A stretch of 59,600 nt of DNA from Candidatus Uhrbacteria bacterium (GTDB lineage Bacteria; Patescibacteriota; Patescibacteriia; UBA9934). The translations under genes and the position numbers were made by a program. Shown here piece after piece: positions 4,118 through 36,086 of this stretch; positions within the stretch are counted from its first letter, which is position 1, and each line of letters opens with the position of its first letter. The stretch spans positions 1-59,600 of the forward strand of contig CALRHE010000004.1 in the NCBI GenBank assembly GCA_943359345.1, in the 5' to 3' direction. Below the pieces are notes generated by a model, which was not told where the DNA came from, did not search any database, and saw only the letters and a list, made by a program, of their open reading frames with translations.

Positions 4118-5731
4118 CTATAAATCTGTTCCAGCACAACTTAAACCTAAAGATTGGCTGCACAGCGGAAAATCTGAAACAATATTCCCTGGTGCTATTT
4201 CGCCTAACAATGGCCAGTTACAAAACGATGGGTCACGAATAACGTAACGTTCGATTCTACCTGACTTAAGATAAACAAGGTGCAGAATTTCGCCGCGACC
4301 ATTCTCCACTGCACCTAGGTCACGACCATCCTTAGGTTCACAAGGCATTAGATGGGCACCTTCGCCTGGATTCTTGCACAATTCTTGGATCAATCTTTGG
4401 CTGTCTTTTAACTCGTCAACCCGAAGCATGAAACGGGCATAAACATCGCCCGTTACCTTGATGGGTACTGTGGGTAGGAAACGCCCATAGGCAGCGTACG
4501 GGTGGTCACGACGTACATCCCGATCAATTCCAGAAGCTCGGGCTGCAATGCCTACAGCACCGTAGGCTAAACCGGCTTCCTTGCTTAAAATACCTATATT
4601 CTCAAGCCGGTCACGTAAACCATCTGACTGGATAGCGAGACTTACCACATCCAGCATCTCATCAATTATCTCACCCATGACAATCGAAATCTTTTGAAAT
4701 TCATTAGCCTGAAAGTCACGCGACACGCCTCCAGGCACAATTAAGCCTCGCCAAAAACGGTTACCTAACAGCTCATCAGACAAGCGCACAACCTGCTCCT
4801 TGAGCCTAAAACCCTGAGATGATAAAAGCGTATACCCGGCGCCCAGGCCGCCAATCGTGGCCAGGTCAGAAATATGCATGGTTACGCGTTCAAGTTCATT
4901 CACGAGCGAACGTAAACTCTGGGCCCGTATAGACACCTTGCAAGCCGCCAAATTCTCAATTGCTTGTGCAAAGGCAAGGGCGTGCGAGGCAGCGGAGTCA
5001 CCACAAATATGCTCCACTAGCGTTAATGCTTCAGGTAGATTTTTACCTTCCAATAATTTTTCAACACCTTTATGAGTGAAAAAAAACTTACTCTCAAGGG
5101 CTATCATCCGCTCACCAGCTACGTTTAAACGAAAATGTGCGGGCTCACTAATACCCCCATAAACAGGTCCGAGTGGAATTTCAACAACACCCTCACCTAT
5201 CACAAACGGCATCGGATAAGCTATGTCGGCCGTCTCCATTTTAGCGTTCCACATAAAATCCTTGCGGAGCGGAAAATGTCCTTCCGGTACATTTTCATGG
5301 TGAACCAAACGTCGTGGGTCAGGATGACCAACTGCCTCAATACCGAACATGTCTTGAATAAATCTTTCGAACCAATGGGCCGCCATGACGCGACGTGTAA
5401 CCGATGGGTAGCTTAGATCTTCAGGCTGCAAACGTGTGGACAATAAAAACCAGGTCTGACTTGTGTCATCGTGCAGCAAAGCGTGCACACCATAACTACC
5501 CGCGCTAGTCCGATCATCAGTTGCGTACAGGTGTGCCAAAGCTAAACCAACGCCCACCAAACCGCTGACATCCAAGCTCATGCTCAGCTGCGTGGTTAGG
5601 CCCCTGACATTCACCAGTTCATCAATAATGTCGGCAAATTTTTCGCGCGGCACACTGGCGAAAACAAGGTCAGACCTGTCTGCCTGAATATGTAGGCCAA
5701 GCACGTTGCCCAAGAATTCTTTAAGGCTCAT
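4118..5731 (-). CDS. hyfG: Group-4 hydrogenase-related (Ehr) large subunit, HycE/HyfG-like NuoC+NuoD fusion, lacking NiFe-binding CxxC motifs
   Basis: WFERFIQDMFGI..GHPDPRRL, FPLRKDF, GPVYGGISEPAHFR, THKGVEK, ENGRGE, RDPSF; L1 reads HICGDS and the C-terminus reads DFPLCSQSLGLSCAGTDL (no DPCxxC). Confidence 0.88.
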   Translation of the reverse strand: MSLKEFLGNVLGLHIQADRSDLVFASVPREKFADIIDELVNVRGLTTQLSMSLDVSGLVGVGLALAHLYATDDRTSAGSYGVHALLHDDTSQTWFLLSTRLQPEDLSYPSVTRRVMAAHWFERFIQDMFGIEAVGHPDPRRLVHHENVPEGHFPLRKDFMWNAKMETADIAYPMPFVIGEGVVEIPLGPVYGGISEPAHFRLNVAGERMIALESKFFFTHKGVEKLLEGKNLPEALTLVEHICGDSAASHALAFAQAIENLAACKVSIRAQSLRSLVNELERVTMHISDLATIGGLGAGYTLLSSQGFRLKEQVVRLSDELLGNRFWRGLIVPGGVSRDFQANEFQKISIVMGEIIDEMLDVVSLAIQSDGLRDRLENIGILSKEAGLAYGAVGIAARASGIDRDVRRDHPYAAYGRFLPTVPIKVTGDVYARFMLRVDELKDSQRLIQELCKNPGEGAHLMPCEPKDGRDLGAVENGRGEILHLVYLKSGRIERYVIRDPSFCNWPLLGEIAPGNIVSDFPLCSQSLGLSCAGTDL

Positions 5732-7206
5732 AAGAGTCCGGGGTTAAACGACTGGGCTATACCGAGCATAAAGGCTAGCCCGGCTGGAGTGATATAAAAC
5801 ACCCCCAAAGCCACCGCCAAAAGCAGATGTAGACCCATGACTAGGTGAGTTATATTCCAGGGCTCAGCCACCGTGTTTGAGAATCGTCCGGGCGAGGTAA
5901 ATAAGAGCCCGTAAACATTTCTGATCATAGCCACACTAGCCACTACCAGAGCCAATGAAACCACAAGCGTAATTAATACGTGCTCTCTGAGGCCAAAGCC
6001 AATCACCAACATCTGACTCACAAAGACACCTGAGGGCGGGATAGCTGACAGCATGAGTAAAGTCAACAGAAAGAGCAAACCCGTCCTTGGCAACTTTACC
6101 CAAACGTCCTTTATCAGTGATGTATCGGTTGTTTTGTAGGCTGTAACAATCTCGCCAGCCCCAAAAAATAAGCCCGACTTGAGTAAGGCATGTCCGGGCA
6201 TGTGCATGAGCATAGGCACCAAGCCCGCGGGCCCAAGCCCGATTGCCAAAGTCATCAAGCCCATATGTTCAATGCTTGAATAGGCTAGCAAACGTTTATA
6301 GTTTTTCTGAAGCATTAGGCTGAGCGCGGGCACAACGATGGATAAGCAGCCGAAGACTAAAAACAGTCTGCCTGTCCAAACACCATTATCCATGAAAGCC
6401 AGATCAGCAACTTGTCGAAAGCGTAAAAGTGAGACCAGAGCCACATTCAGTAATACGCCAGATAACAAGGCCGAGATTGGCGCTGGTGTCTTGCTGTGTG
6501 CATCTGGTAGCCAGGTGTGCATTGGGACTAAGCCGATCATGGTTCCGATACCCATAAACACAAACACAAAAGCCCAGTGCATGATTTGGACATTCATACC
6601 TTGAGCGGCAGCAATATCACGAACAGTAGAGAGTAAGAATGAGCTGCCCACACCACTTTGTCCGGCGGCATAAGCGGTGAGGAAGATTCCGATTAAACAC
6701 AAACTCAAACCCAGAGAACACAAGAGGATTGATTTCCAAGCCGCCTCAAGGGCCGAACGTTTACGGTAGAAAGCTATGAGCAGAATCATTAATAGAGTCG
6801 CGGCTTCGAGTGCTAGCCACAGCAAACCCAGATGATTACTGAGCACAGCTACATACATGGCAGCACTTAACAACGGTGCCAGACTGAAATAACGCCGAAT
6901 ATCAGCGGTTGAAATAATTTGCTCTGCTTGTTCACGGGCCAGGTAACGATAGGCAGCCAGCGTAGCTGAAAATGAAATAAGCGCAATCAAAACCAGATTG
7001 AGTGCTGCAATACCGTCCAGATACCATAAGGACCATGGTCCGATGATTCCAACCTGAGAAAAGCCGGGCCAGGCAATATATATGGCCAGGGCCGAACTAA
7101 TCGCCATGAACATCAAACCCAAATATCGAGCCCGCCGGTCAGAAATTGGCAGGTAAGCCGTAGCTGCAGCGATGCTTAGCACGCCGATCAAGATCAGAGG
7201 CAACAT
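5728..7206 (-). CDS. hyfF: HyfF-like (NuoL/M/N, Mrp antiporter-like) membrane subunit
   Basis: WLALEAATL, HTWLPDAHS, SALLSG, KRLLAYSSIEHMG, KSGLFFGAG. Confidence 0.88.
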   Translation of the reverse strand: MLPLILIGVLSIAAATAYLPISDRRARYLGLMFMAISSALAIYIAWPGFSQVGIIGPWSLWYLDGIAALNLVLIALISFSATLAAYRYLAREQAEQIISTADIRRYFSLAPLLSAAMYVAVLSNHLGLLWLALEAATLLMILLIAFYRKRSALEAAWKSILLCSLGLSLCLIGIFLTAYAAGQSGVGSSFLLSTVRDIAAAQGMNVQIMHWAFVFVFMGIGTMIGLVPMHTWLPDAHSKTPAPISALLSGVLLNVALVSLLRFRQVADLAFMDNGVWTGRLFLVFGCLSIVVPALSLMLQKNYKRLLAYSSIEHMGLMTLAIGLGPAGLVPMLMHMPGHALLKSGLFFGAGEIVTAYKTTDTSLIKDVWVKLPRTGLLFLLTLLMLSAIPPSGVFVSQMLVIGFGLREHVLITLVVSLALVVASVAMIRNVYGLLFTSPGRFSNTVAEPWNITHLVMGLHLLLAVALGVFYITPAGLAFMLGIAQSFNPGLL

Positions 7207-7874: not shown

Positions 7875-8824
7875 ATAAGGCGTGACAAGAGTGCTAAGGA
7901 CACACCACCGAGTGCCATAAAGAAGGCGCTCGTTAGAAACTCTTGAATACGATAGAGCCGTACCCTGGCAATGCTAGATTCAAGCAAGGCAATAACAAAC
8001 ATTACCACTAACAACTTGAGCAAGGTTGCTAGAATTACACTGAACACAGTCAGGCCGCTGGATGTAGCTACAAGGATTGGCCAGGGTAATATCAGATTAG
8101 CAAGCAAGAGCACAAACACGGTTAGCTTAAGCGCGGAGGCATATTCAAGCATGGCCAGATACGGACCAGAGTAATCAAAGACCGTGGCTTCATGCATCAT
8201 TGTAAGTTCCAGTTGCGTACCTGGTTCGTCAACTGGATAACGGGCAGTTTCAGCCAAAGCAGTGAGCATGAGTGCAAACCATGACAACACCAAATACGGT
8301 GCCTGAATTAGCAGACCTCCGACCATGACCTGACCGCTAATCACTCCGTCAAGTGTAGATGACCCGGTGGCAAGAACTAAAGCTATAAAAGTCAGAATTA
8401 TGGTGGGCTCAAACAAAGCCGCCAGCGTGATGGCACGGCTGCCACCCAAACCTCCAAACGCACTTCCAGCATCGAACGCACCCATGACCAAAAACGTTGA
8501 ACTCAATAACAGCACAGCCGCGACCACAATAAAATTCGACAGCGCAGTCAAACTCCCGCCTACGGACACAAGCGGTAAAACTAAAGCTAAAAAAATATTC
8601 GATCCCAGCACTGCATAGGGTGTTACGTGCAGCATCCATGAACCGGTACTCGAAATTACGTTCTCCTTTTTCAATAAATTAGCGTATGTAATATAGGGTA
8701 ACCACGGTACAGCCCCATGACGACCTTGCAATCGGGCTTTGAACCAGCGCACGCCACCCACTGACATAGGTGCCAGTGACAAGACAAGGCTTATCTGAAT
8801 TAGACTTAATATGAGCGGGCTCAT
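7871..8824 (-). CDS. hyfC: HyfC/HycD-like (NuoH-like) membrane subunit
   Basis: KARLQGRHG, GSAFGGLGGSR, AETARYPVD, LELTMMHEA..DYSG. Confidence 0.88.
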   Translation of the reverse strand: MSPLILSLIQISLVLSLAPMSVGGVRWFKARLQGRHGAVPWLPYITYANLLKKENVISSTGSWMLHVTPYAVLGSNIFLALVLPLVSVGGSLTALSNFIVVAAVLLLSSTFLVMGAFDAGSAFGGLGGSRAITLAALFEPTIILTFIALVLATGSSTLDGVISGQVMVGGLLIQAPYLVLSWFALMLTALAETARYPVDEPGTQLELTMMHEATVFDYSGPYLAMLEYASALKLTVFVLLLANLILPWPILVATSSGLTVFSVILATLLKLLVVMFVIALLESSIARVRLYRIQEFLTSAFFMALGGVSLALLSRLI

Positions 8825-10815
8825 AAGGCAATCATCAGGGTTAAGACCGTGGCTAGTAAAATCAAGCTAATATACGCTTGGAGATTACCACTTTGGAGTC
8901 TTACCACGAGGCTGGCTAGACGTGTAAACCCAGCACCAATAGGCACATACAGCCGGTCGTACCATACCTGATTGATAAGCAATGTCATCGAACGTGCAAC
9001 AATCCAGCGATTATGGGTCGTGACCGGAGTGACATTGACTAGTTTTTTTGTGCGCAGAAAAAAACTAAATAAAAATCTGATCGGAGCCGAAAAGGCCGTG
9101 CTCGTGAACTCCATACGTGGAGTTAGAGGCTGGCCACCATCCCAGGTTTGATATTCACGTGTCAGCTTTACATCACTGATCAAGCCACGTATCAACCACA
9201 GACCGAACACCACCACCAGCATAAATAAGGCTAAATCCATCGGTACCAAACTGCCTCCACCAGTGACCAAAATTTGCTGACTAAAGTTGGCTGGCGCTAT
9301 GCCTACAGCTCCAATGCCGTTCAGCACCTGAGGCGCAAATAAACCCAGCATAAGTCCGAGTCCTGACAGTGAAGTTATTGGAAGCAAGAACTCGAGCCCA
9401 GGCTGCATAGCTGCAGCTGCTGGCTCAGAACGAGCTTGTGCTAAAAATGCCATGGCGTACAGCTTCACCATTGCAAATACAGCCAGACCGGTCACAAAAG
9501 TAATGGTGGACACAGTTACCAAGATCATAATCTTGAGCCTCAATGAAGACTCTTCCAAACCGCCCACCATAGCCTGCACAAAAATCCAGTCAGCTATAAA
9601 CGGTGCGAACGGTGGTAAAAAAGCTGCACCCAATATAAGCATGAACACCCCTACAGATAACTGGGGCATGCGCTTCGCCAATCCGCCCATAGCTTCAAGT
9701 CTGCGACTACGAGCGGCCGCCACTAGCACACCTGAAGCCAGGAATAATCCAGACTGACACACGGCCTGGGCCAGCATCAAAAATATCGCAGCGTACACCG
9801 CAGCCTGGGCCAGGACCAGATTCCCCTCTTGTCCAGCCAGTAACGCCAAGCCAAGCATAGTAAACATGATCCCAAAATTCTGAATACTCGTGTAAGCTAA
9901 TAAACGTGTGATGTCGCGCTCAAGCACGGAATATAAAACGCCTACAACTGCGGACAGTAAGCCCAGAAAAAACACTGTAAACACTGCCCACATCGGAACT
10001 CCTGGCAGTAAGAACAGAAAAACTCTTAAAAAACCATACACGGCAATGTTTAGCATGGCTCCGGATAACAGCGCTGAGACCTGGGTTGGAACTTGGGAGT
10101 GAACCTCTGGCAACCAAACGTGGAATGGAACCAAACCAGCCTTGCACCCGAAGCCAAAAATTAGGAGTCCAATGGCTACAAATAAACTGACCTGAGGAAG
10201 ATCGGCAGTCATTTGAGCTAAGACTGAAAAATTATTCAGTAAGGCTCCACCAGACAACAGGAAAAGTCCAGCCATGATGGCGCTCGTACTCAGATGAGCC
10301 AAGATCAAGTACAAAAACCCAGCTTTACGTGAGACCGCCTTGCCATCAGCCAGGATGAGAAAGAACAGGGTTATCGACATGATCTCCCAGAAAGTCATGA
10401 AGCCGAAAATATTTGTTGATAAAATAACGCCTTGCATGCCAAAGATAAACACCGCCGTTAGGATGTTCACATTCCGAATATTGTAGTTATCTGGTTGCTG
10501 TTCAAGGTACGGAATCGCGTACGCGGCTGCAAAAAAACTTATTCCTGACACGAGTGTATAAAAAATCGCTGAAAACCGATCAAGACTGAAATTCATGCCA
10601 TAAAATACCGGCCACAGACTGGCAGAAGGTAAAATCAACGGTTCGGTAGCAGTGGCTATAAATATACCCACCACCGCTCCCATAAGGGCGCACACAGCTA
10701 CGATCAGGTTACTCAACCGATGCGCATGACGGTTGGGCAAGCTTGCTACCACCGCTGCCAGGGCCATACCTAGGAACGAGGCTAGTAGCATAATCGCCAG
10801 GGCTTGCATAGTCAT
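8821..10815 (-). CDS. hyfB: HyfB/HycC-like (NuoL-like) antiporter-type membrane subunit
   Basis: FWEIMS, KAGLVPFHVWLPEVH, LLAYTS, LGGL-like 'AMGGLAKRMP', C-terminal RLQSGNLQAYI. Confidence 0.88.
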   Translation of the reverse strand: MTMQALAIMLLASFLGMALAAVVASLPNRHAHRLSNLIVAVCALMGAVVGIFIATATEPLILPSASLWPVFYGMNFSLDRFSAIFYTLVSGISFFAAAYAIPYLEQQPDNYNIRNVNILTAVFIFGMQGVILSTNIFGFMTFWEIMSITLFFLILADGKAVSRKAGFLYLILAHLSTSAIMAGLFLLSGGALLNNFSVLAQMTADLPQVSLFVAIGLLIFGFGCKAGLVPFHVWLPEVHSQVPTQVSALLSGAMLNIAVYGFLRVFLFLLPGVPMWAVFTVFFLGLLSAVVGVLYSVLERDITRLLAYTSIQNFGIMFTMLGLALLAGQEGNLVLAQAAVYAAIFLMLAQAVCQSGLFLASGVLVAAARSRRLEAMGGLAKRMPQLSVGVFMLILGAAFLPPFAPFIADWIFVQAMVGGLEESSLRLKIMILVTVSTITFVTGLAVFAMVKLYAMAFLAQARSEPAAAAMQPGLEFLLPITSLSGLGLMLGLFAPQVLNGIGAVGIAPANFSQQILVTGGGSLVPMDLALFMLVVVFGLWLIRGLISDVKLTREYQTWDGGQPLTPRMEFTSTAFSAPIRFLFSFFLRTKKLVNVTPVTTHNRWIVARSMTLLINQVWYDRLYVPIGAGFTRLASLVVRLQSGNLQAYISLILLATVLTLMIAL

Positions 10816-26080: not shown

Positions 26081-27574
26081 CTAGAATTTCTCCACAAATT
26101 CTACAAGTGTACGCACGCCGTGGCCTGTGCCACCCTTGCCTAGATACGAGCTCAACGGTCGCTCAGCATAAGCCGGGCCAGCAATATCTAGGTGTACCCA
26201 GGGTTTGCCATCTACGAACTCCTGAATGAATAGACCAGCTGTCAGTGTTCCGCCGTAACGCGAGGTTGGGATATTCCGCAAGTCGGCGATGTCCGAGTTA
26301 ATCAGTTCACGATAGCGCGGCTCAAGTGGTAATTCCCACATTTTTTCACCAGCCAGCTCGGCCGCCTCCAAAACTTGCTTACCCAACGCCTGATTGTTAG
26401 TCATGAGGCCAGTGATCTCTTCGCCAAGTGCCACCATGCAGGCACCCGTTAACGTAGCTAGGTCGATAATTGCATCTGGTTTTTCTTTAAGTACGTAGGT
26501 GATGGCGTCAGCTAGTGTGAGACGACCTTCAGCGTCGGTGTTCAAAATTTCGATCGATTTTCCATTTGATGCTCTAACCACATCACCAGGTCTAATCGAC
26601 TTACCTGACACCATGTTTTCTGTAGCCGCAATCACCCCATGCACGTTAACACGTGGTTTAAGTTTAGCTAAGATCTCGAACAGGCCGATCACGGCCGCTC
26701 CCCCAGCCATGTCGCACTTCATAGTCATCATGGCGTCAGCCGGTTTGAGAGATAATCCACCCGAATCAAAAGTTACACCCTTGCCCACCACGGCTAAAGT
26801 TTTTTTGGTTGGTCGAGGCGAGGTGTAGGTCAAGTGAATAAACTTAGGCTCATGCTCAGCCCCTTGAGCTACTGCCAGGTATGCTCCCATCTTGAGTTTT
26901 GTACATTCAGCTGTATCAAGCACCTTGATCTTGATTATGCCTGACGAGCTTTTAGCCACCTGCGTAGCGGCCGCAGCCATGTGTGTCGGTGTCATGTCTT
27001 GCGCCGGAGTGTTGACTAGATCACGAGCCGTGGTGATGCCGCCTGCAATCACCTGGGCTCGCTCAATATGTTTACGCATGGCCTGTGCCAGCCGACCGTC
27101 AGCTGCCAAAATTTCTAGGCTATCAATTTTTTTTGCCGGCTTGTGTTTGCGATAAGTCTCAAAAGTGTAATCAGCTAACTGAACAGCTAGTGCCACGGCC
27201 TCAGCGGATTCGGCTTTAAAATCTTTACCAGATAAATCCAGAGCCAAAGTTTTAAGGCCTTTACGTTTAGCTGTGGTCAACATGACTCCCGAGGCCTCCC
27301 GCACAGCCTCTTCTAAACCATGCAAGCGTTTACTCCCCAAACCAACCAGCAAAAACTCGTCAGCCATTGACTCTACCGGAGCCGGCAGTGACAACGACTG
27401 ACCGACCTTGCCAGAAAAATCCAAGGCCTTAGCAGCCTTGGCTGCTCGTTGTTTCCACACGTCATTAAAGCCTTTGAGGGTCTGAACATCAAACTCAGCA
27501 TTTTCAAACACCGGCAGCACCAAGAGCTCGGCTGGACTAGTCAATAAATCCCCTTTTTTTACTGTAATCGTCAT
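26081..27574 (-). CDS. pepA: Leucyl aminopeptidase (M17)
   Basis: VGKGVTFDSGG, MKCDMAGG, NTDAEGRL, DLATLTGA, HLDIAG. Confidence 0.97.
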   Translation of the reverse strand: MTITVKKGDLLTSPAELLVLPVFENAEFDVQTLKGFNDVWKQRAAKAAKALDFSGKVGQSLSLPAPVESMADEFLLVGLGSKRLHGLEEAVREASGVMLTTAKRKGLKTLALDLSGKDFKAESAEAVALAVQLADYTFETYRKHKPAKKIDSLEILAADGRLAQAMRKHIERAQVIAGGITTARDLVNTPAQDMTPTHMAAAATQVAKSSSGIIKIKVLDTAECTKLKMGAYLAVAQGAEHEPKFIHLTYTSPRPTKKTLAVVGKGVTFDSGGLSLKPADAMMTMKCDMAGGAAVIGLFEILAKLKPRVNVHGVIAATENMVSGKSIRPGDVVRASNGKSIEILNTDAEGRLTLADAITYVLKEKPDAIIDLATLTGACMVALGEEITGLMTNNQALGKQVLEAAELAGEKMWELPLEPRYRELINSDIADLRNIPTSRYGGTLTAGLFIQEFVDGKPWVHLDIAGPAYAERPLSSYLGKGGTGHGVRTLVEFVEKF

Positions 27575-27858
27575 AGGATATCTTTTTCTATCATTTTCAC
27601 AATCTCGTCAATATCGTCCCAAGTGGCCCCAGACAGCCAGACATCGTCAGGCATGATCATAATATTTGGTCCAAAGTCACATTGACCGAGGCAGCTGGTT
27701 TGCACCACCCGTACGGGCAATTGCTTGGCTTTACATAGCTCCTTCAGTTTGTCCTTATATTCACTACCGCCTTGAGGACCACAAGAAACTCGACCATCGT
27801 CGCGAATGTTGCCACAAACCAAGATCAACTTCTTATAAGGTATACTTTGCTGGTGCAT
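27571..27858 (-). CDS. Thioredoxin-like [2Fe-2S] ferredoxin
   Basis: LVC-x10-C...TSCLGQCDFGPNI four-Cys pattern. Confidence 0.85.
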   Translation of the reverse strand: MHQQSIPYKKLILVCGNIRDDGRVSCGPQGGSEYKDKLKELCKAKQLPVRVVQTSCLGQCDFGPNIMIMPDDVWLSGATWDDIDEIVKMIEKDIL

Positions 27859-27861
27859 AAA

Positions 27862-27890
27862 TTGACGAAAACTTGAGTCTTCGGCATACT
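27862..27890 (+). promoter_or_regulatory. Putative sigma70 promoter
   Basis: TTGACG, 17 nt, CATACT. Confidence 0.55.
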
Positions 27891-27957
27891 ACTCTCCATC
27901 TTGAACAAGGGCAATCTCCCCTTAACCCCATCAACCCCCTTAACCCCTTTATTCAAT

Positions 27958-28089
27958 ATGCCAACCCGCCATCACATCTCACGCAAAAGTGCCAACGCAC
28001 GTTTTGCCGTCAAGCGTAAAGAAGCTGAATTTACTCGCCGCAAAAACAAAGCTAAGCGCCTAGCCAAACTAGAGAAAAAGGCCGCTTAG
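27958..28089 (+). CDS. Small very basic protein (43 aa)
   Basis: MPTRHHISRKSANARFAVKRKEAEFTRRKNKAKRLAKLEKKAA; promoter upstream; stop 3 nt before the next gene. Confidence 0.55.
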   Translation: MPTRHHISRKSANARFAVKRKEAEFTRRKNKAKRLAKLEKKAA

Positions 28090-28092
28090 TTT

Positions 28093-29016
28093 ATGCGCTT
28101 CTACTCGATGCTAATGTTAAGCAGTCTGCTCCTCCTCGGTGCAGGCTGTTTTAAGTCGTCGCCAATCAGTGTTCTGCCCGAAACCCCTGATAGACAATCT
28201 GAAATACTCGTCGGCGATCTTGAAATCGAGGCCGTCACTATCGAGCGTAACTTTGTTCTCAATGACTCGGCCGAGTGTCGAGTCAATCTCAGTTATCCCA
28301 ACCTCTTAGCAGGTAGCCTCCCGGCTGAGGTTGGTGCCGAGGCCGACCGAGCTATGGCTGGCTTCATAGCTAAAGCACTAGGCTCAGCTGCTGACGTTGA
28401 AAGTACTTCCGAGCTGGACGCACTTATTGATGATTACCTTAAGGTCTGCGAACATGGAATTACCGCCGAGTACGACGCTCTCACTGAAGCTGATGAAGTT
28501 CTGTTCACAAACCTCAAGCACCGTCTAGACATCGTGTATTCAATAACTCTTAACGAGCATAATTTATTAAGCCTTGGTCTAGATGAATATTCGTACACTG
28601 GCGGAGCTCATGCCAACCAAAATCAACTTTACTTAAACCTTGATCTTAATGGCAACCGTTTACTCAAACTTCAAGACCTGATTAAACCTGATAGTCTCAA
28701 AACTTTTGTCCAACTCGAAAAATTTAAATTACTTGAGGCACAGGCTGACAATCTGTATCCCGATAGAATAGCAGAGTATGAAGCTTTGATGATCGATACT
28801 CGCCTACTATCTGCCGAACAACAAATCGAAAGCTATGGCGACATCGACAATTTTTATTTGTCCGCTACTGCTATCGTCACTTATTACAATCCATACGACC
28901 TGGCACCGTATGCCGTGGGTCCAATTTTTGTTGAAATTCCGTATACTGTGATCCTGGATTATCTAGATCCTAATAGCCAGATCTCACCGCTCGTTGAGGC
29001 ACTCAAACAATTATAA
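28093..29016 (+). CDS. Lipoprotein with RsiV/PdaC-like (DUF4163/DUF3298) domain
   Basis: LLLLGAGC lipobox; YSYTGGAH, LKLQDL, YNPYDLAPYAVGP. Confidence 0.8.
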   Translation: MRFYSMLMLSSLLLLGAGCFKSSPISVLPETPDRQSEILVGDLEIEAVTIERNFVLNDSAECRVNLSYPNLLAGSLPAEVGAEADRAMAGFIAKALGSAADVESTSELDALIDDYLKVCEHGITAEYDALTEADEVLFTNLKHRLDIVYSITLNEHNLLSLGLDEYSYTGGAHANQNQLYLNLDLNGNRLLKLQDLIKPDSLKTFVQLEKFKLLEAQADNLYPDRIAEYEALMIDTRLLSAEQQIESYGDIDNFYLSATAIVTYYNPYDLAPYAVGPIFVEIPYTVILDYLDPNSQISPLVEALKQL

Positions 29017-29023
29017 GCACAAG

Positions 29024-29050
29024 GCCCCATGGTCAGAGAGACCATGGGGC
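29024..29050. terminator. Hairpin between convergent genes
   Basis: gccccatggtc agaga gaccatggggc. Confidence 0.65.
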
Positions 29051-29085
29051 ACGATTGTCGCCGAGCTGAACGGATCATGGGGTGA

Positions 29086-29820
29086 CTACGCCAAATCCAT
29101 GCGGATGGCCTCCAGGATGGAATAGTCATACCCTGGCTTGTAGTTTTCAAACACATCCCGTAAGGCAGGGTGTACGTCTGCTTCAGAAAGATCGGATGCG
29201 CAATTGAACAGGTGGAACTGCAGGCCGCCGAAATGGATGACTACCTTGAGCAGTTCCTGCCAATCGGCAAACATGTATGGAACCGTGAATACTTCCAGGC
29301 TATTCAAACCACCTTGATCGATGCACACACGGAAGCGATAGCGCAACGGAGGCGTTGCAAACTTGGCCGCGTCAGGCCCAGAGACGGTCGGCACAGCCTC
29401 GGACTGGCGGCTGGCCACTTCATTTGCGTGCACCAAAATCGCACCCTCATGCAAGAACTTGTAGCGTTTGGGAAACACCTGCACCATCCACTGATCAGGC
29501 AAGCTTTCGAGCAATGCCACCCCGAGTGCGTAGGCCAGCTGCCGACGCAATTCTATGGGTAGATCAGCGTGATCCTCAAGGCCCTCGATAATAATGTAGG
29601 CAACCCTCGGATCCCCAACCTCACCGTCATGGCATTCCCAAGGATTACCGAAATCGAAGATAACTGATTCACGGTCCTCAAGACCTGGAACCTGAGTGTC
29701 CGCGATGGTCTGCCAGAGAGAGCGGCGGACATCTGCTCGCCAAAAGCCGGCTGCCTCTTGACCGTGTTCCGCAATATACACCTCTGGAAACTCGTAATTT
29801 CCAATCCGAATGATGATCAT
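29086..29820 (-). CDS. ORFan hypothetical protein
   Basis: 244 aa; AGGAGG SD; TAGACT-17-TAACCT promoter upstream; GC-rich. Confidence 0.7.
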   Translation of the reverse strand: MIIIRIGNYEFPEVYIAEHGQEAAGFWRADVRRSLWQTIADTQVPGLEDRESVIFDFGNPWECHDGEVGDPRVAYIIIEGLEDHADLPIELRRQLAYALGVALLESLPDQWMVQVFPKRYKFLHEGAILVHANEVASRQSEAVPTVSGPDAAKFATPPLRYRFRVCIDQGGLNSLEVFTVPYMFADWQELLKVVIHFGGLQFHLFNCASDLSEADVHPALRDVFENYKPGYDYSILEAIRMDLA

Positions 29821-30048
29821 GTTCCCTCCTAAGTAGGTCGTCGTCTGGCCCTGCCATAGGGTTCGTTTCCTAGGAAGCGAAAACTCAGGTTACATAAAAA
29901 TATGCTTTTAGTCTAGCCCTCAATTCATCGGGCCTTGAAATCACTCAGGCTTTACTGGAATAGACAAAATCTATATTCAGTAGTAATCTGCTCAGTCGTA
30001 AGACAATCAACCAACCAACAAACCAATCTACTCCGTGGAGGAAATCAC

Positions 30049-30348
30049 ATGAGCGCCGCCTTGTATGACATCGATTACAGGCACGCCACCATCACCGAAC
30101 ATCGTGGACGCGACACGTGTGTAGGCAGAGTGGTGCGCGTTGAGCCCGACATGCAGGCAGGTCTAATCACACTGTGGTGGTCTGGACCAAGGGGCAATCT
30201 CCGTCGGGCTGTACTCGTATTCGCGGACTGGGATATCGAGTACCGCGACGGACAGGCTGTATTCCAAAAGGCTGCCAATCCACAACCCAATTACCACGGT
30301 CACGCGACACCCAATGTAACCGGCTACATGATCGCATTAGCCCCGTGA
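30049..30348 (+). CDS. ORFan hypothetical protein (start moved to ATG 30049)
   Basis: GGAGG SD 7 nt upstream; TAGACA-17-TAATCT promoter at 29961-29989. Confidence 0.65.
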   Translation: MSAALYDIDYRHATITEHRGRDTCVGRVVRVEPDMQAGLITLWWSGPRGNLRRAVLVFADWDIEYRDGQAVFQKAANPQPNYHGHATPNVTGYMIALAP

Positions 30349-30377
30349 CTGCCGTCTCACCCCATGCAAACAACGAG

Positions 30378-30426
30378 CCCCCTCTACTGGGAGCCTGGTC
30401 GTTCTCAGCACGGGGTTTGTTGTTTA
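30378..30426 (+). repeat. 49-nt structured 3' element, copy 1
   Basis: ccccctctactgggagcctggtcgttctcagcacggggtttgttgttta, identical to 31303-31351. Confidence 0.9.
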
Positions 30427-30669
30427 AATAAAATCTGTTTAGAACAGCTAAAATACAAATCCACCTTCGTGATGAAGACGGACTGGTGGTGAACCGAAAG
30501 CTACGTTAACCGAATATTTAGAGAAAACGTTGAAAAGCTCGCATTGCTGAAGTTTAGCTTCGGAACACCCGTTGCCGCCGAATAGACAGAGCGAGCTATT
30601 TATGATAGTCTCTTGGGTCGCAAGACGCCCTACGGCAGGGACAGCCGTGTTCTTTCAAGGAGGTCGACC

Positions 30670-31272
30670 ATGTATCAAGTGGCCGTGCTGATAACAGCCG
30701 GACTCATTCTCATTTCAGCGGTGGACTACGTCCGCCGCGCCTGGAGAGGTGAGACGAATCCGGTGCCCGCCACCTGGATACTCATGATGGTTATGATCAG
30801 TCTGTCCTGCTGGACTTACTGGCAGAGCCCTAGCAGGTCGTGGACAAGTAATATCGCTGTTCCGGCGAGCGTCCCCAACGTCGCCTACATCCTGTCCGCG
30901 GTTCTTATCCTAAATGCGCGTCGGGGAAGCCTGGTGGTTGCTTTCGACCGCGTACAGAGATGGTGCCTGTTTGGTGGGGCCGGAGTCGTGGTGTTTTGGT
31001 TCATTACCAAGAACGCCCTCGTCTCCTACATCCTCGTCCAGTGCATCGGGCTCATTGCCTACGCAGCGACTGCCCGGAGGCTCTGGTACGCGGAGCGCGT
31101 GACCGAACCTTTGGTCTTCTGGGTCTGTATCCTGTTTGCGAACTTGTGCGCCTTGTACCCGGCGTGGGTGCGTGACGACATGTTCTCCTGGATCTACCTT
31201 ATCCGGACCATCCCCACCACTTCCGGCATGATCTTTCTTATCGCCCGCGCACAGCGGCGTATGAAGTCATGA
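30670..31272 (+). CDS. Multi-pass membrane protein (start moved to ATG 30670)
   Basis: AAGGAGGT SD; TAGACA-17-TAGTCT promoter at 30583-30611; about 6 TM helices, GETNPVPATW motif. Confidence 0.75.
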   Translation: MYQVAVLITAGLILISAVDYVRRAWRGETNPVPATWILMMVMISLSCWTYWQSPSRSWTSNIAVPASVPNVAYILSAVLILNARRGSLVVAFDRVQRWCLFGGAGVVVFWFITKNALVSYILVQCIGLIAYAATARRLWYAERVTEPLVFWVCILFANLCALYPAWVRDDMFSWIYLIRTIPTTSGMIFLIARAQRRMKS

Positions 31273-31302
31273 TCGCGTATCTCGCCCCGTACGAGCGACA
31301 AT

Positions 31303-31351
31303 CCCCCTCTACTGGGAGCCTGGTCGTTCTCAGCACGGGGTTTGTTGTTTA
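31303..31351 (+). repeat. 49-nt structured 3' element, copy 2
   Basis: Identical to 30378-30426. Confidence 0.9.
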
Positions 31352-31631
31352 GTGATAATATCTTTATGTATTAAGGAATTCGAAACCCGCGAGTAAAGCT
31401 GCTAAAAATGGGACACATATTAGCAGATGCCGAAATATCCTTTGCTATTTCTTAAACCTTAAAATAAATTCCTGTATTTAACATAGTTGGTCTAGATAGA
31501 ACTAGTAAAAATACTCTTGAAAATGAACAGGCATCTTGGCTTTTTTAACCTGACTTAGGACACATGCAGAGTAAGCTTATGCCAAAATTAGCTAGCTTTT
31601 TTTTGGAAAAATATAGTAGAGTAGTCTGATT

Positions 31632-32057
31632 ATGAATCCTTTTCTCAAAGTAGCAGGAATCCTAGTTGGTAGTGCTCTTGTTGCGACTACAGTAATAAAT
31701 CTATCGAAAAATATTCCGCTACTAGTTCAAAGCGAGACTGTTCAAGAAACTCCAAAATTCACACTGCCAAGTCAAATTCAAAAACCAGCCCTCATTCAAG
31801 CTACAGGTGGAGGAGCGATCGAAGAAGCTGTTGTTGAAAAACCAGAAGTTAAGAAAATCGTTACTCCTCCAAAGACACAAGTTAGACCAGTATCAAATTG
31901 CCATCCAAGCTATTCAGGATGCCTTGAAATGAATGCTGGTGACTATGACTGTGACAGCGGTTCAGGCAATGGTCCAAATTACACCGGATCAATTGAAGTA
32001 TACGGCTCTGACCCATTTGACCTTGACCGAGATAATGATGGTTGGGGCTGTGAGTAG
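31632..32057 (+). CDS. Membrane-anchored protein with a C-terminal Excalibur-like Ca-binding domain
   Basis: N-terminal TM, Pro/Lys linker, CHPSYSGC..DYDC...DPFDLDRDNDGWGCE. Confidence 0.75.
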   Translation: MNPFLKVAGILVGSALVATTVINLSKNIPLLVQSETVQETPKFTLPSQIQKPALIQATGGGAIEEAVVEKPEVKKIVTPPKTQVRPVSNCHPSYSGCLEMNAGDYDCDSGSGNGPNYTGSIEVYGSDPFDLDRDNDGWGCE

Positions 32058-32443
32058 TATGAATAATTGTTGTACTATTTAACTAAAACGTTATAAAAAA
32101 GACATCCAAATGAAGTACCAGATATTATAAAAATTATCTGAGGTTTTTCTATACACTCAATCAACGTTCTCCCTCGATTTAGTTTGTTCTTGGTGAACCA
32201 CCCTCCAGAAATGTGGAACCTCATTCTCGAAGAGCTGAAGCAGCTCTATGTTCTGCAAACCGAGGAAAACAGAGCTACGGCATTTGCTCGATAGGACTAC
32301 CGATGGGGAGTAGAACAAGAAGAAACAAGGCGAGATTCATGAAGTCAGCCCGTTCATTGGTACACGGGATTTTCAGGGCAGAGATTATGGAGGAATGGTC
32401 AATATAACTTGGCTAACATAAGCCATTATATTGCGAGTTTACC

Positions 32444-32472
32444 TTGACAAAAGGTCAAAAAAGTGTTATAGT
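32444..32472 (+). promoter_or_regulatory. Near-consensus sigma70 promoter
   Basis: TTGACA, 17 nt, (TG)TATAGT. Confidence 0.75.
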
Positions 32473-32663
32473 AATAGACGTAAGATGTTCATTGTCATGG
32501 TGCTTGCGGCAAGTCATTGTTCCGCGCTTTGAGGAAAGAAAATAGCTTCTTTTCTGAAAGCGCGTCGAGCAATGGCTCGCGGCAATCGGTGGCACCCGCC
32601 ACCAACGCTGACGGTACGCCCTGACCGTCGGTTTCCTCCAAAGGGCTACAATCGGAGCACCCC

Positions 32664-32957
32664 ATGACGACGACCCAGACCACCCGCGCCCCCGAGACCG
32701 CCACCTCCTTCGCTTCCCGCGTGGAGCGGCACAGCGGCCTCAAGGTCAGCCGCATCCCCAACGCGGAGCCCGAGGTCATGCTCGGCGGTGCCATCATCTG
32801 CAACTCCCCCCACGGTACGCTGGTCTTCACGGACTGGTCGCATCAGGAGGAGGACGGCACGGACATCTACTCCAAGGCCGTCATCGTGAACCGTGGGAGC
32901 GAACTCGCCCCCGCCGACCACGATGCGGACGGCATCATCCCGCAGGACAACAAGTAG
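32664..32957 (+). CDS. ORFan hypothetical protein, strongly GC-rich
   Basis: 97 aa, GGAG SD, GC3-rich codons, downstream hairpin. Confidence 0.65.
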   Translation: MTTTQTTRAPETATSFASRVERHSGLKVSRIPNAEPEVMLGGAIICNSPHGTLVFTDWSHQEEDGTDIYSKAVIVNRGSELAPADHDADGIIPQDNK

Positions 32958-33004
32958 CACTCTCGCGCATCGGCGCGGCTACGCACCTCAACGTTCAATC
33001 GTTG

Positions 33005-33040
33005 CAAGGAGCGTAACCCGTCGGTGCGCTCTTTGTTTAC
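33005..33040 (+). terminator. Intrinsic terminator-like hairpin
   Basis: caaggagcg...cgctctttg followed by ttt. Confidence 0.5.
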
Positions 33041-33086
33041 AGTAGGTTTTCTATGATAAAATCAGGTGACTAAATAACTTTTCCCT

Positions 33087-33434
33087 ATGTTAGGACGACA
33101 TCCTGAAGGAGGAATGGAAGTGCCGCAGCCACCCGAGGCCACAGAGCACAAGATACAGTCAAAGTATATTTATCGTGAGGAGGGCGTACCCGAGGATCCA
33201 GCAACGCTCAATGCCCTACAAGAGTGGGCGGATGCGTGGGGTGAATACGTCTGGCAATGTAAAATCGAAAACCAGCCAGTTCCTCCAAACGATGACGAGG
33301 TAAGTGCTGACCTCAAAGCAAAGGGTGACCTTTTGGAGCAGAAAGGCGCAGCTCTTGAAAAAATGCTACCAGAGGCCAAGTTCTATTCTGGCGTTGTCAT
33401 TTGGGAGGGCGGACACGTTGAACTGACCACATAA
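33087..33434 (+). CDS. Hypothetical acidic protein
   Basis: 115-aa ORF filling an intergenic gap, followed by a hairpin. Confidence 0.65.
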   Translation: MLGRHPEGGMEVPQPPEATEHKIQSKYIYREEGVPEDPATLNALQEWADAWGEYVWQCKIENQPVPPNDDEVSADLKAKGDLLEQKGAALEKMLPEAKFYSGVVIWEGGHVELTT

Positions 33435-33485
33435 AAGAAAAAGAACAGCCAATAAAAACAACCCTCCACGAGGGAGAGTTGTCTT

Positions 33486-33560
33486 TGGTGACTCCACCGG
33501 GAATCGAACCCGGATTTAAGGCTTGAGAAGCCTCTGTCCTAACCGTTAGACGATGGAGCC
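33486..33560 (-). tRNA. tRNA-Glu(CTC), CCA encoded
   Basis: GGCTCCA...TGGAGTC acceptor stem, GAGGC-TTCTCAA-GCCTT anticodon arm, GGTTCGATTCC T arm. Confidence 0.95.
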
Positions 33561-33572
33561 AGAATATCTAGA

Positions 33573-33681
33573 CAATTTAATTAGGCTATCTTCTGCGTCA
33601 CTCGTTCCGTCGGATTCGTCGTACCTGTCAGTACGTCTCGTCCTTACTCGTTCGCTTCTAGAATCTGACCTAATTAAATTG
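33573..33681. repeat. 13-bp terminal inverted repeats enclosing an 83-nt structured core
   Basis: caatttaattagg (33573-33585) and cctaattaaattg (33669-33681); inner cgtac-ctgtca-gtacg hairpin. Confidence 0.6.
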
Positions 33682-33768
33682 ACTTTATTATGAAAAGAAC
33701 GGTGGAAGGATAGCCTGAAAGTCAGTATTGGTCAAGCTGTGTTTGGTCAGTTACACTAGGGTCAGATA

Positions 33769-34176
33769 ATGCTTATGTTGGTTATTCCCGAATCAGAAAT
33801 CGAGTTTGAATTTGTACGCTCATCCGGCCCGGGCGGGCAAAATGTCAACAAGACCTCGACTAAAGCGCAGTTACGCTGGCCGATGTTTGCGTCCAGCGTC
33901 TTGAGCGACGCAGACAAGCAAACACTCGCCATCAAACTCGCCCATCGCTTAACCCAAGATGGTTACTTGGCCATTGATGTGAGCGAGAAACGCTCGCAGC
34001 TCAGGAATAAACAACGAGCTCTAGAGCTCCTGCATGAACTCGTTAGTCAAGCACTCGAACCGACCATTCCCAGACTCCCAACACGTCCCACCAAAGCCTC
34101 GCGAGCAAAGCGTTTAAACAACAAACTCAAGCGTGGCAGTCTAAAACAGTTACGTAAACCTATAGCTGAGGACTAG
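33769..34176 (+). CDS. arfB: Alternative ribosome rescue factor ArfB (YaeJ)
   Basis: FVRSSGPGGQNVNK, RSQLRNK, basic tail PTRPTKASRAKRL..K. Confidence 0.95.
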   Translation: MLMLVIPESEIEFEFVRSSGPGGQNVNKTSTKAQLRWPMFASSVLSDADKQTLAIKLAHRLTQDGYLAIDVSEKRSQLRNKQRALELLHELVSQALEPTIPRLPTRPTKASRAKRLNNKLKRGSLKQLRKPIAED

Positions 34177-34262: not shown

Positions 34263-36086
34263 ATGTGTGGAATCATTGGCTTCATTGGTGACGAAGATGC
34301 TGTCAATCATATTACTGACGGGTTAACTATTCTGGAGAACCGTGGCTACGACTCGGCTGGTCTAGCCACACTCTCAGCCGCTGGCCAATTATTCGTCAGT
34401 AAATTTGCGAGTGGTGATCAGGCCGATGCCGTCGTCCATCTCAAACAGGTGGCCGGCCTGCACGTAGGGCACAAACTCGGGATCGGTCACACGCGTTGGG
34501 CTACGCACGGTGCCAAGACTGATACCAACGCCCATCCTCACCTTGATGCCAAACAGCGTGTCGCCGTCGTCCACAATGGTGTGATTACAAACTATACGAC
34601 TCTCAAACACCAACTGGTTAATCAGGGTATAAACTTCGTTTCCCAAACTGACACTGAGGTCATTGCACAACTTATCGGTGACGCGCTCGATCGTGGTCTA
34701 GAGCTCACCGAGGCCGTGCGCGATACACTTGGCAAACTCGAAGGCACCTGGGGGCTTGGCATTATTTCTCCGCTACTCCCCGATGGCATCATAGTTGCTA
34801 AAAACGGCAGTCCGCTTGTCATCGGCATAGCCGATGACAAAGCCTTCATAGCCTCTGAGCCGGTGGCCTTTGGCACAGCCACGCGTGATTTTATCGCACT
34901 CCAAAACGGCGAAATCGCTATCGTCCGGGCCAATCGAGATGGTCTCGATTTGACTAGGTTAGAAAAAGCCGCCGAAGAAACGATCGCTGTCTCGCCTGAA
35001 CCCTATCCTCACTGGACCATTAAAGAAATCCTAGAACAGCCCGAGGCTATCCGTCGCACCCTAAACCACGGCGCACGCCTGCGGTCAGATGTTGAGGTTA
35101 AACTCGGTGGCTTAGACATTCGCGAAGAAGAACTCGTGCAGATTCACCATCTCGTTATTGCCGCCTGCGGAACGTCCTACCACGCCGGCCTGTATGCAGC
35201 GCAATCGATGCGCTCACTAAACGCCTTCGAGACAGTTCAAGTGGTTGATGCTTCTGAGCTTACGCCCCAACATTTTGCGAGCGAGGGCGCCGGCCTACTC
35301 GTGATCTCTCAATCTGGAGAAACCAAAGATGTTCACCGAGCCGTCATCATGGCTCAAGAACTCGGAGTACCTGTTTTCTCGGTGGTCAACGCGGTCGGAT
35401 CGCTCATAGCCCGCACCACGCAGTGTGGTGTCTACCTTAACGCTGGACGTGAACGTGGAGTAGCCTCGACCAAAGCCTTCGTAACCCAGGTGGCAGCTCT
35501 CGAGCTCATTGCTATTTGGTTCTCCGAACAACAAGAAACCGAGGTGGCTAAACGACGCCAACTCGTCGAGGAATTGCATCGGCTCTCAACCAATATCGAG
35601 GCCGCCCTCAAACTTCGTGATCAATGTCACAACCTCGCCAAAAACTTACTCGAGGCCGAGCACATGTTCGTACTCGGCAAAGGCTACGGTGAAGCTATTG
35701 CTCGTGAGGGTGCCCTCAAAATTAAAGAAATCACCTACCTCCACGCCGAAGGTTATCCGGGTGGTGCCCTAAAGCACGGGCCGTTTGCACTTATACAACC
35801 CGGTACCCCAGTCATACTGGTTATTCTCGATGACGAACATGCTAATCATATGCGCACGGCCGCTGAAGAGGTGCGTGCTCGGGGTGCCCGTACGATTGTG
35901 ATTACTGATCGAGCAACCTTGGCAGAACACGTGGCTGATGAAACTCTCATCATTCCAAAAGACGGCACCTTGGTCGGACTCCTGGCAACTGTGCCACTCC
36001 AATTAATCGCCTATGAGCTTGCAGTCCTAAAGGGCATCAATCCCGACAAACCGAGAAACCTCGCCAAGGCCGTAACCGTTGATTAG
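34263..36086 (+). CDS. glmS: Glutamine-fructose-6-phosphate transaminase (isomerizing)
   Basis: MCGI, NRGYDSAG, GHTRWATHG, SQSGET, STKAF, KHGPFAL, PRNLAKAVTV. Confidence 0.98.
   Translation: MCGIIGFIGDEDAVNHITDGLTILENRGYDSAGLATLSAAGQLFVSKFASGDQADAVVHLKQVAGLHVGHKLGIGHTRWATHGAKTDTNAHPHLDAKQRVAVVHNGVITNYTTLKHQLVNQGINFVSQTDTEVIAQLIGDALDRGLELTEAVRDTLGKLEGTWGLGIISPLLPDGIIVAKNGSPLVIGIADDKAFIASEPVAFGTATRDFIALQNGEIAIVRANRDGLDLTRLEKAAEETIAVSPEPYPHWTIKEILEQPEAIRRTLNHGARLRSDVEVKLGGLDIREEELVQIHHLVIAACGTSYHAGLYAAQSMRSLNAFETVQVVDASELTPQHFASEGAGLLVISQSGETKDVHRAVIMAQELGVPVFSVVNAVGSLIARTTQCGVYLNAGRERGVASTKAFVTQVAALELIAIWFSEQQETEVAKRRQLVEELHRLSTNIEAALKLRDQCHNLAKNLLEAEHMFVLGKGYGEAIAREGALKIKEITYLHAEGYPGGALKHGPFALIQPGTPVILVILDDEHANHMRTAAEEVRARGARTIVITDRATLAEHVADETLIIPKDGTLVGLLATVPLQLIAYELAVLKGINPDKPRNLAKAVTVD

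Follow-up and report, generated by a model that had tools for sequence, protein, structure and literature searches.

A structured, terminator-like RNA element behind accessory genes of Candidatus Uhrbacteria

Why should the same 49 nucleotides (nt) stand, letter for letter, behind two neighbouring but unrelated genes? The question is raised by a 59,600-nt stretch of the chromosome of a Candidatus Uhrbacteria bacterium (assembly GCA_943359345.1, contig CALRHE010000004.1, positions 1 to 59,600; hereafter, the window). The genomes of Patescibacteria, the group to which this lineage belongs, are tiny and the cells rely on hosts; little is understood of the ways in which they acquire and swap accessory genes. 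A first-pass annotation, made from the letters alone, proposed either a portable 3′ module, composed of a terminator plus an extra domain, or a capture site placed like the attC sites of integrons. Our analysis indicates that the repeat belongs to an approximately 75-nt structured RNA element that is probably the intrinsic terminator, or 3′ module, of self-contained accessory-gene cassettes; termination, 3′-end protection and cassette movement by recombination between copies are roles that we infer.

A family of elements behind unrelated genes

The genome that contains the window (G000; 732 kb, approximately 49% GC, 24 contigs, approximately 98% complete) carries the two exact 49-nt copies on the forward strand at 30378–30426 and 31303–31351, spaced 925 nt apart, and none of 100 dinucleotide shuffles matched this 49-nt repeat. 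The identical part begins 29–30 nt past the stop codons of two open reading frames (ORFs), ORF1 and ORF2, as the first-pass annotation had described. Similarity between the copies runs on upstream, with 84% identity over 87 nt (30355–30441 versus 31280–31366), so the repeat unit is longer than was first seen. A covariance model, R1, built from ten copies, bounds copy 1 at 30351–30428 (80.8 bits) and copy 2 at 31276–31353 (85.4 bits), with the conserved hairpin starting 12–13 nt past each stop. Beyond this longer element the flanks of the two copies are unlike, as had also been noted, and the DNA between them is not duplicated.

BLAST found no copies in this genome beyond the two in the window; R1 added a third, weaker one on contig C13 (3236–3306), for a total of three. 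A search of 60 relatives recovered the same element, approximately 70 nt long, in several genomes with different genes upstream. At a threshold of E ≤ 0.01, with E-values that are rough owing to a short calibration, R1 matches 77 of the 162 genomes of the order (Ca. Uhrbacteria, Patescibacteria) in 1–10 copies per genome, and approximately 45 of the matches are strong and spread over five families (f1, f2, f3, f5 and f6). The borders of the element are sharp, and its consensus reads CTCGCCCCGYGCGAGACGACAAGCCCCCTCTACTGGGAGCGCTGTCGTTCTCAGCRCGGGGTTTGTTGTTT. Arrays of ORF and element units on one strand occur in four genomes (G133, G148, G131 and G153).

The position of the element relative to genes is consistent. 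For 35 of the 41 distinct copies, a co-oriented ORF of 80 amino acids (aa) or more ends −9 to +77 nt from the stem, with a median stop-to-stem distance of approximately 18 nt; the same test on the antisense strand gives 9 of 41. The upstream ORFs are mostly unrelated to one another and include a GNAT acetyltransferase, a radical-SAM/B12-binding protein, an RNA-polymerase alpha C-terminal domain protein, lipoproteins and membrane proteins. Their GC content is 0.52–0.63, compared with approximately 0.49–0.51 around them. Homologous ORFs keep the element at a fixed distance, for example 56 nt in three genomes.

The family appears to be confined to its lineage. When 185,579 species genomes were pattern-scanned and the matches checked with the model, true members came only from records titled Candidatus Uhrbacteria or Patescibacteria, some of them mislabelled; matches in metagenomes include contigs labelled ‘Hain-H41’ (Hainich). 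Two pattern scans of IMG/VR returned 0 and 3 matches, none of the 3 accepted by the model as an element, and a phage origin was rejected for want of any true member there. A known RNA family was likewise rejected: an Rfam 15 cmscan of 27000–34000 at E ≤ 1 gave only the tRNA-Glu and weak, sub-threshold matches off the element. We also rejected a wider taxonomic spread, because 18-mer matches in Olsenella/Atopobiaceae and other records all fail the model. The 18-mer itself, GTTCTCAGCRYGGGGTTT, occurs once per genome in approximately 30 Atopobiaceae (Olsenella, Thermophilibacter, Atopobiaceae; loci L076–L135) and is probably part of some conserved Atopobiaceae sequence.

Two mutually exclusive folds

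Four helices are conserved in the element, grouped as two mutually exclusive sets, Fold T and Fold A. In Fold T a long hairpin, CCCCGYGC-GAGA-CGAC / GUCG-U-UCUC-A-GCRCGGGG, is capped by a small apical stem and followed by a free UUUGUUGUUU tail; the GC-rich CCCC.../...GGGG stem followed by UUUGUUGUUU is present in nearly all 41 distinct copies. Counted on an alignment that the model had fitted to this very structure, the long hairpin has 88.8% of cells paired and compensatory changes at 13 of 21 pairs, a result equalled by none of 500 shuffles and far above slid controls, and its covariation is the strongest of all the helices. Two single-base bulges, both in the 3′ arm, are conserved, and the apical part is variable. 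In the window, the 5′ arm, apical part, 3′ arm and U-rich tail occupy 30360–30377, 30378–30397, 30398–30415 and 30416–30425 in copy 1, where the tail reads TTTGTTGTTT, and 31285–31302, 31303–31322, 31323–31340 and 31341–31350 in copy 2, all on the forward strand.

Fold A begins with a 5′ mini-hairpin, CUCGC[CCCGY]GCGAG, with 90.6% of cells paired and 17 compensatory cells against 4.3 expected. An inner stem, CUGGGAGC/GUUCUCAG, is paired in 89% of cells across the family (0 of 500 shuffles) with many switches from G-U to A-U, and an outer stem, ACGACAAGCCCC/GGGGUUUGUUGU, joins an A-rich segment to the U tail with 88% pairing and weaker covariation. Since the inner and outer stems depend on G-U pairs, they can form solely in RNA of the forward strand, which fits an element at the 3′ end of an mRNA.

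The inner and outer stems are those drawn in the first-pass annotation, and both are kept family-wide; that fold was incomplete in missing the 5′ mini-hairpin and the long hairpin, whose 5′ arm lies upstream of the identical core (CCCCGYGCGAGACGAC / GUCGUUCUCAGCRCGGGG). The 5′ arm of copy 1 has four G-to-A differences from the family consensus and five transitions in total against the copy of a relative. Because these transitions weaken Fold T and also render the A-rich/U-tail stem perfect, the earlier reading arrived at the fold with that outer stem.

The long GC-clamped hairpin that the element can form on the mRNA strand, running directly into UUUGUUGUUU, has the shape of a Rho-independent terminator, and Fold A would draw the freed 3′ end into a duplex, or it could modulate termination. 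A family found behind unrelated co-oriented ORFs, with a terminator shape and alternative helices, is what the proposal of a portable terminator plus extra domain had anticipated. The element also resembles Rho-independent terminators with an A-tract/U-tract extension, in that a GC stem and then a U-rich tract follow the stop and an upstream A-rich segment can pair with the tail. To our knowledge, ordinary terminators show no sequence conservation across genera behind unrelated genes; the element, unlike them, forms a family of approximately 75 nt with covarying alternative helices.

The two folds raise a further possibility, that the element is a regulatory RNA switch, either an attenuator controlled by translation or by a factor or a source of small RNA from the 3′ untranslated region, and not a constitutive terminator. 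Both folds show covariation, and in the best-conserved copies their energies lie within a few kcal/mol of one another. The mini-hairpin competes with the 5′ arm of the terminator, and in many copies 1–10 nt separate it from the stop codon, so that a ribosome terminating there would cover it. However, the GC stem abuts the U tract in both folds, so that either looks capable of termination; the mini-hairpin is also weak, and the element has neither conserved loops resembling a ligand pocket nor an Rfam match. We consider a switch in place of a constitutive terminator unlikely, and it is compatible with the terminator reading rather than exclusive of it.

Cassette architecture and exchange between genomes

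The conserved parts are not limited to the 3′ end. Both genes in the window are preceded by GAATAGACA-N17-TA(A/G)TCT, at 29961–29989 and 30583–30611, and then by GTCG(T/C)AAGAC. The shared TAGACA-17 promoters reported in the first-pass annotation stand: TAGACA-N16-18-TAnnCT has just three sites in the 732-kb genome, and two are these. Promoter 1 (TAGACA-N17-TAATCT, inside GAATAGACA) lies within a match to a 5′-module model, R2, at 29950–30049 (64.6 bits), and its leader, 29995–30048, begins GTCGTAAGAC and is, by alignment and R2 match, a degenerate copy of a shared leader. Promoter 2 (TAGACA-N17-TAGTCT) lies within the R2 match at 30572–30672 (92.5 bits), and its leader, 30617–30669, carries a GGUC-GCAA-GAC(C) hairpin, a CGGC-AGGGACA-GCCG hairpin and an AAGGAGG Shine-Dalgarno sequence, all of these features on the forward strand. 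The ORF2-type leader stands ahead of different ORFs in G131, G148 (twice), G157, G060, G001 and the Logan contig L147. R2 matches 38 of the 162 genomes, and in nine clear cases a 3′ element lies 0.3–1.4 kb downstream of its module, on the same strand. The 5′ and 3′ modules are thus partly independent conserved parts that frame a transcription unit with a variable ORF. The motif GTCG(C/T)AAGAC on its own was rejected as a genome-wide leader signal, its ten other occurrences being coding sequence or 16S rRNA.

A further conserved module, recognized by eye, precedes promoter 2 on the forward strand at 30488–30570 (GGTGAACCGAAAGC...GTTGAAAAGC...GTTTAGCTTCGG). This non-coding module follows the pattern GGTGAAC(C)GAAAGC...AACCGAATATT...GTTGAAAAGC...GTTTAGCTTCGG and recurs upstream of cassettes in G133, G131, G012 and contig L147; candidate roles for it are an UP-like region, a second promoter and a further RNA.

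The cassettes lie in a hypervariable hotspot between conserved genes. Its left flank is a DUF3298/PdaC-domain gene (28093–29016, forward strand; Pfam), syntenic in G014 and in a related metagenome-assembled genome (MAG), GCA_943356555.1; its right flank is a tRNA-Glu(CUC) gene (33486–33560, reverse strand), beyond which lie an arfB-like gene (33769–34176) and glmS (34263–36086). In G014, whose GlmS is 81% identical, the flanks are retained with 12.3 kb of different genes between them, and in G131, G133 and G157 cassettes also lie beside glmS or a ferredoxin gene.

ORF2 (30670–31272, forward strand) encodes a 200-aa multi-pass membrane protein with no Pfam family. It has 83 homologs, mostly in Patescibacteria, and belongs to a nameless family that is Patescibacteria-wide. 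Codon differences from the L147 homolog are 79 synonymous and 37 non-synonymous, on which basis we take ORF2 to be a real gene. At the two loci checked outside the lineage, ORF2 homologs have no element. In G131, a member of another genus, the order is element, promoter, leader, ORF2 and element, and the ORF2 homolog is 78% identical in amino acids against just 65% for GlmS, which points to movement of the ORF2 unit by lateral transfer. ORF1 (30049–30348, forward strand) encodes 99 aa, also with no Pfam family, and has a single homolog, 60% identical, in the same hotspot of the related MAG. The description of the pair as two unrelated ORFans therefore nearly fits ORF1, with its one homolog, and does not fit ORF2. 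A 97-aa ORF at 32664–32957 is distantly paralogous to ORF1 (51 aa aligned at 33% identity, with a common LVF(A/T)DW...DG motif; E=1e-6 in a single comparison); it has a promoter and leader unlike those of ORF1 and no element, so the region holds two copies of one small-protein family.

Identity between elements does not follow identity between their ORFs. In G131 and contig L147 the elements that follow ORF2 are of one subtype, B, and 96% identical to each other, whereas the window element behind ORF2 (copy 2) is of subtype A and only 74–77% identical to subtype B. Copy 2 is 84–86% identical to copy 1, to the element of the ORF1 homolog in the related MAG and to a G131 element behind an unrelated ORF. 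Unrelated ORFs can be followed by elements that are 84–88% identical, while those of ORF2 homologs, themselves 78% identical in amino acids, are only 70–77% identical; elements also remain 66–85% identical where their ORFs are just 28–47% identical. Subtype is uncoupled from ORF ancestry. Because ORF2 homologs elsewhere carry a different subtype, the best reading of the perfect 49-nt tract is that the neighbouring elements in this genome exchanged sequence or underwent gene conversion.

The related MAG offers a direct comparison. Its order is pepA, ferredoxin, DUF3298, a 236-aa ORF, the ORF1 homolog, one element, 11 nt and tRNA-Glu; by blastn and alignment of L152/L153 to the window, it lacks an approximately 3-kb segment of the present genome, 30427–33449. 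The left border of this segment falls exactly at the last base of copy 1, and in three comparisons the final T of the tail marks an abrupt end of homology. As a sign of exchange bounded by the element, this indel is suggestive only.

A sigma-70-type promoter and a 5′ leader that bears a terminal GNRA hairpin are common to many cassettes, including both in the window, and with the 3′ element they frame a transcription unit around a variable ORF. Conserved bookends of otherwise unrelated cassettes would provide portable homology for recombination, and gene conversion or a crossover within the element would yield the perfect 49-nt tract of the neighbours. Such homology would explain the hotspots, the uncoupling of subtype from ORF and the 49-nt tract together.

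Several smaller features were observed in and around these regions. The segment from the DUF3298 gene to tRNA-Glu (29086–33449) is an accessory island of small genes, GC-richer than the genome in its first 2.3 kb (0.52–0.58) and AT-richer past 31352, with an Excalibur-like C terminus at 31632–32057. We rejected the idea that an integrated element bounded by tRNA-Glu repeats occupies the window, the tRNA 3′ end not being repeated at the island border. In G133:C8 (L062), palindromes of the tRNA-Glu 3′ end, GGAGTCACCA...TGGTGACTCC, surround short bidirectional terminator hairpins on the reverse strand at ~150–240 and ~1990–2030; they look like scars of integration at the tRNA, and a truncated tRNA-Glu fragment also lies beside the G133 cassette array. 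At 1980–2680 of the same locus, between two array cassettes, a low-GC pair of small genes on the opposite strand, one of them helix-turn-helix/antitoxin-like, is possibly a toxin–antitoxin pair. A serine-recombinase-like N terminus (LYLRVSTDRQ) lies in L070 (G012:C1) at 8287–9000, 6.6 kb from the G012 element, and an IS200/RAYT-like ORF (YHIVARGN) lies in L071 (G099:C6) at 5209–6081, near two weak element matches.

Known systems and competing explanations

Several observations weigh against a terminator that frames mobile cassettes. Termination is deduced from the shape of the hairpin, the long-hairpin counts carry the circularity of their alignment, the mini-hairpin has just 5 bp, and the 5′-arm transitions of copy 1 weaken the long hairpin. 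In that hairpin G-U (46) and A-C (53) mismatches are equally common, which leaves it with no RNA-strand bias, and it could be a palindrome at the DNA level; a strand call from these mismatches was dropped, and the G-U-rich helices of Fold A give the strand instead. On the genomic side, the right border of the 30427–33449 segment is not at an element, and a direct repeat of 8 nt, AGAACAGC, with copies at 30441 and 33442, gives an alternative reconstruction of the indel. The 5′ module is also found without the 3′ element, and promoter and terminator are usually non-contiguous.

The closest known system is that of the promoter-early stem-loop (PeSL) cassettes of T4-type phages. There, terminator stem-loops and sigma-70-like promoters flank non-essential and often unrelated ORFs in hyperplastic regions, and the signals are points of homologous exchange that give modular shuffling, indels, replacements between close relatives and mini-circles (Arbiol et al. 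2010, PMC2839356; Comeau et al. 2014, PMC4122927). The Uhrbacteria units share with them a terminator stem-loop and a sigma-70-like promoter around variable ORFs in a hypervariable region. They differ in lying on a cellular Patescibacteria chromosome with housekeeping flanks, rather than in a T4-type phage genome, and in having terminator and promoter as separate modules, 12–160 nt or more apart (12 nt in G131, approximately 155 nt in the window), rather than as a composite motif. The Uhrbacteria element is also longer and has alternative conserved folds.

Could the cassettes instead be moved by a dedicated recombinase? The element would then be an attC-like site, a single-stranded DNA hairpin with extrahelical bases on which an Xer-like or other recombinase acts. 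In its wider form, this is an integron-like, IntI-independent cassette system of the candidate phyla radiation, in which an Xer-type or other enzyme excises and captures promoter-to-terminator units at tRNA-Glu and other hotspots. Both forms seem to us very improbable. The likeness to attC is an imperfect, bulged hairpin with a variable apex behind serial, unrelated, co-oriented ORFs, a resemblance only; the one-strand arrays in several genomes, the two 3′-arm bulges, the absence of G-U versus A-C bias in the long hairpin, the abrupt end of homology at the last T of the tail and the uncoupling of subtype from ORF ancestry are all in keeping with it. Yet the only tyrosine recombinase that a PF00589 search detected in the genome, Xer-like, is encoded on contig C17 (12265–12792) and not on that of the cassettes, no IntI or attI is apparent from that search and the hotspot ORF translations, and no integrase is apparent in the G014, G131, G133 and G148 hotspots as judged from ORF translations only. 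The ends do not fit the attC core sites: the conserved 3′ end, GTTGTTT, puts T in two of the three positions where GTTRRRY calls for a purine, and there is no conserved 5′ RYYYAAC. Unlike integron cassettes, both of those in the window and at least seven elsewhere carry their own promoter and leader; unlike attC, the element is conserved in sequence and not in structure alone, and two of its conserved helices depend on G-U pairs and can form in forward-strand RNA only. Copies number just 1–10 per genome, and homologous recombination accounts equally well for every observation. The earlier idea that the repeat marks gene cassettes thus survives in a loose sense, in the hypervariable hotspots and the uncoupling of subtype from ORF, and not in that of a dedicated capture site.

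Another class to consider comprises REP (repetitive extragenic palindrome) and REPIN sequences, Correia-type miniature inverted-repeat transposable elements (MITEs) and the minimal mobile elements and intergenic mosaic repeats of Neisseria, a class of small intergenic palindromes that can act as terminators, and of hotspots between conserved genes at which cargo is swapped by recombination. A self-mobile palindromic repeat of the REP/REPIN or MITE kind, inserting behind genes, would account for an imperfect palindrome of approximately 75 nt with sharp borders at dispersed loci, including C13:3236–3306. We give this explanation slightly less credence still than an attC-like site. The genome has no Y1/RAYT transposase (PF01797) and only three copies of the element, element borders have no target-site duplication, and the strong bias in orientation behind co-oriented ORFs, together with inheritance alongside homologous ORFs at constant spacing, sets the family apart from such repeats; among the homolog pairs examined within the order, none has an element-less member. 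Finally, a simple tandem duplication confined to this locus, which adjacent copies 925 nt apart with a perfect 49-nt identity might suggest and which the first-pass annotation would have accepted had only two copies existed, can be dismissed, since 77 of 162 genomes carry the family, behind unrelated genes, in the order-wide search. Moreover, the DNA separating the two copies shows no duplication, and ORF2 with its own element is present in other genomes.

A terminator-based 3′ module of accessory cassettes is, then, the reading that we prefer, and the element is a lineage-specific form of known kinds of sequence, a structured intrinsic terminator and PeSL-like regulatory bookends. The bookends appear to move independently of their cargo. 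The locus displays a parts kit used across the lineage, in which a promoter, a 5′ leader and a structured terminator surround unrelated cargo, and the two isoenergetic folds make the element a candidate for control of termination or protection of 3′ ends. If the reading is correct, the system would be a cellular counterpart of the phage PeSL mechanism, and the element a new covarying RNA motif outside Rfam. Uhrbacteria metagenomes could then be searched for accessory cassettes by means of these conserved sequences, which would also supply natural expression signals for organisms in which genetic tools are lacking.

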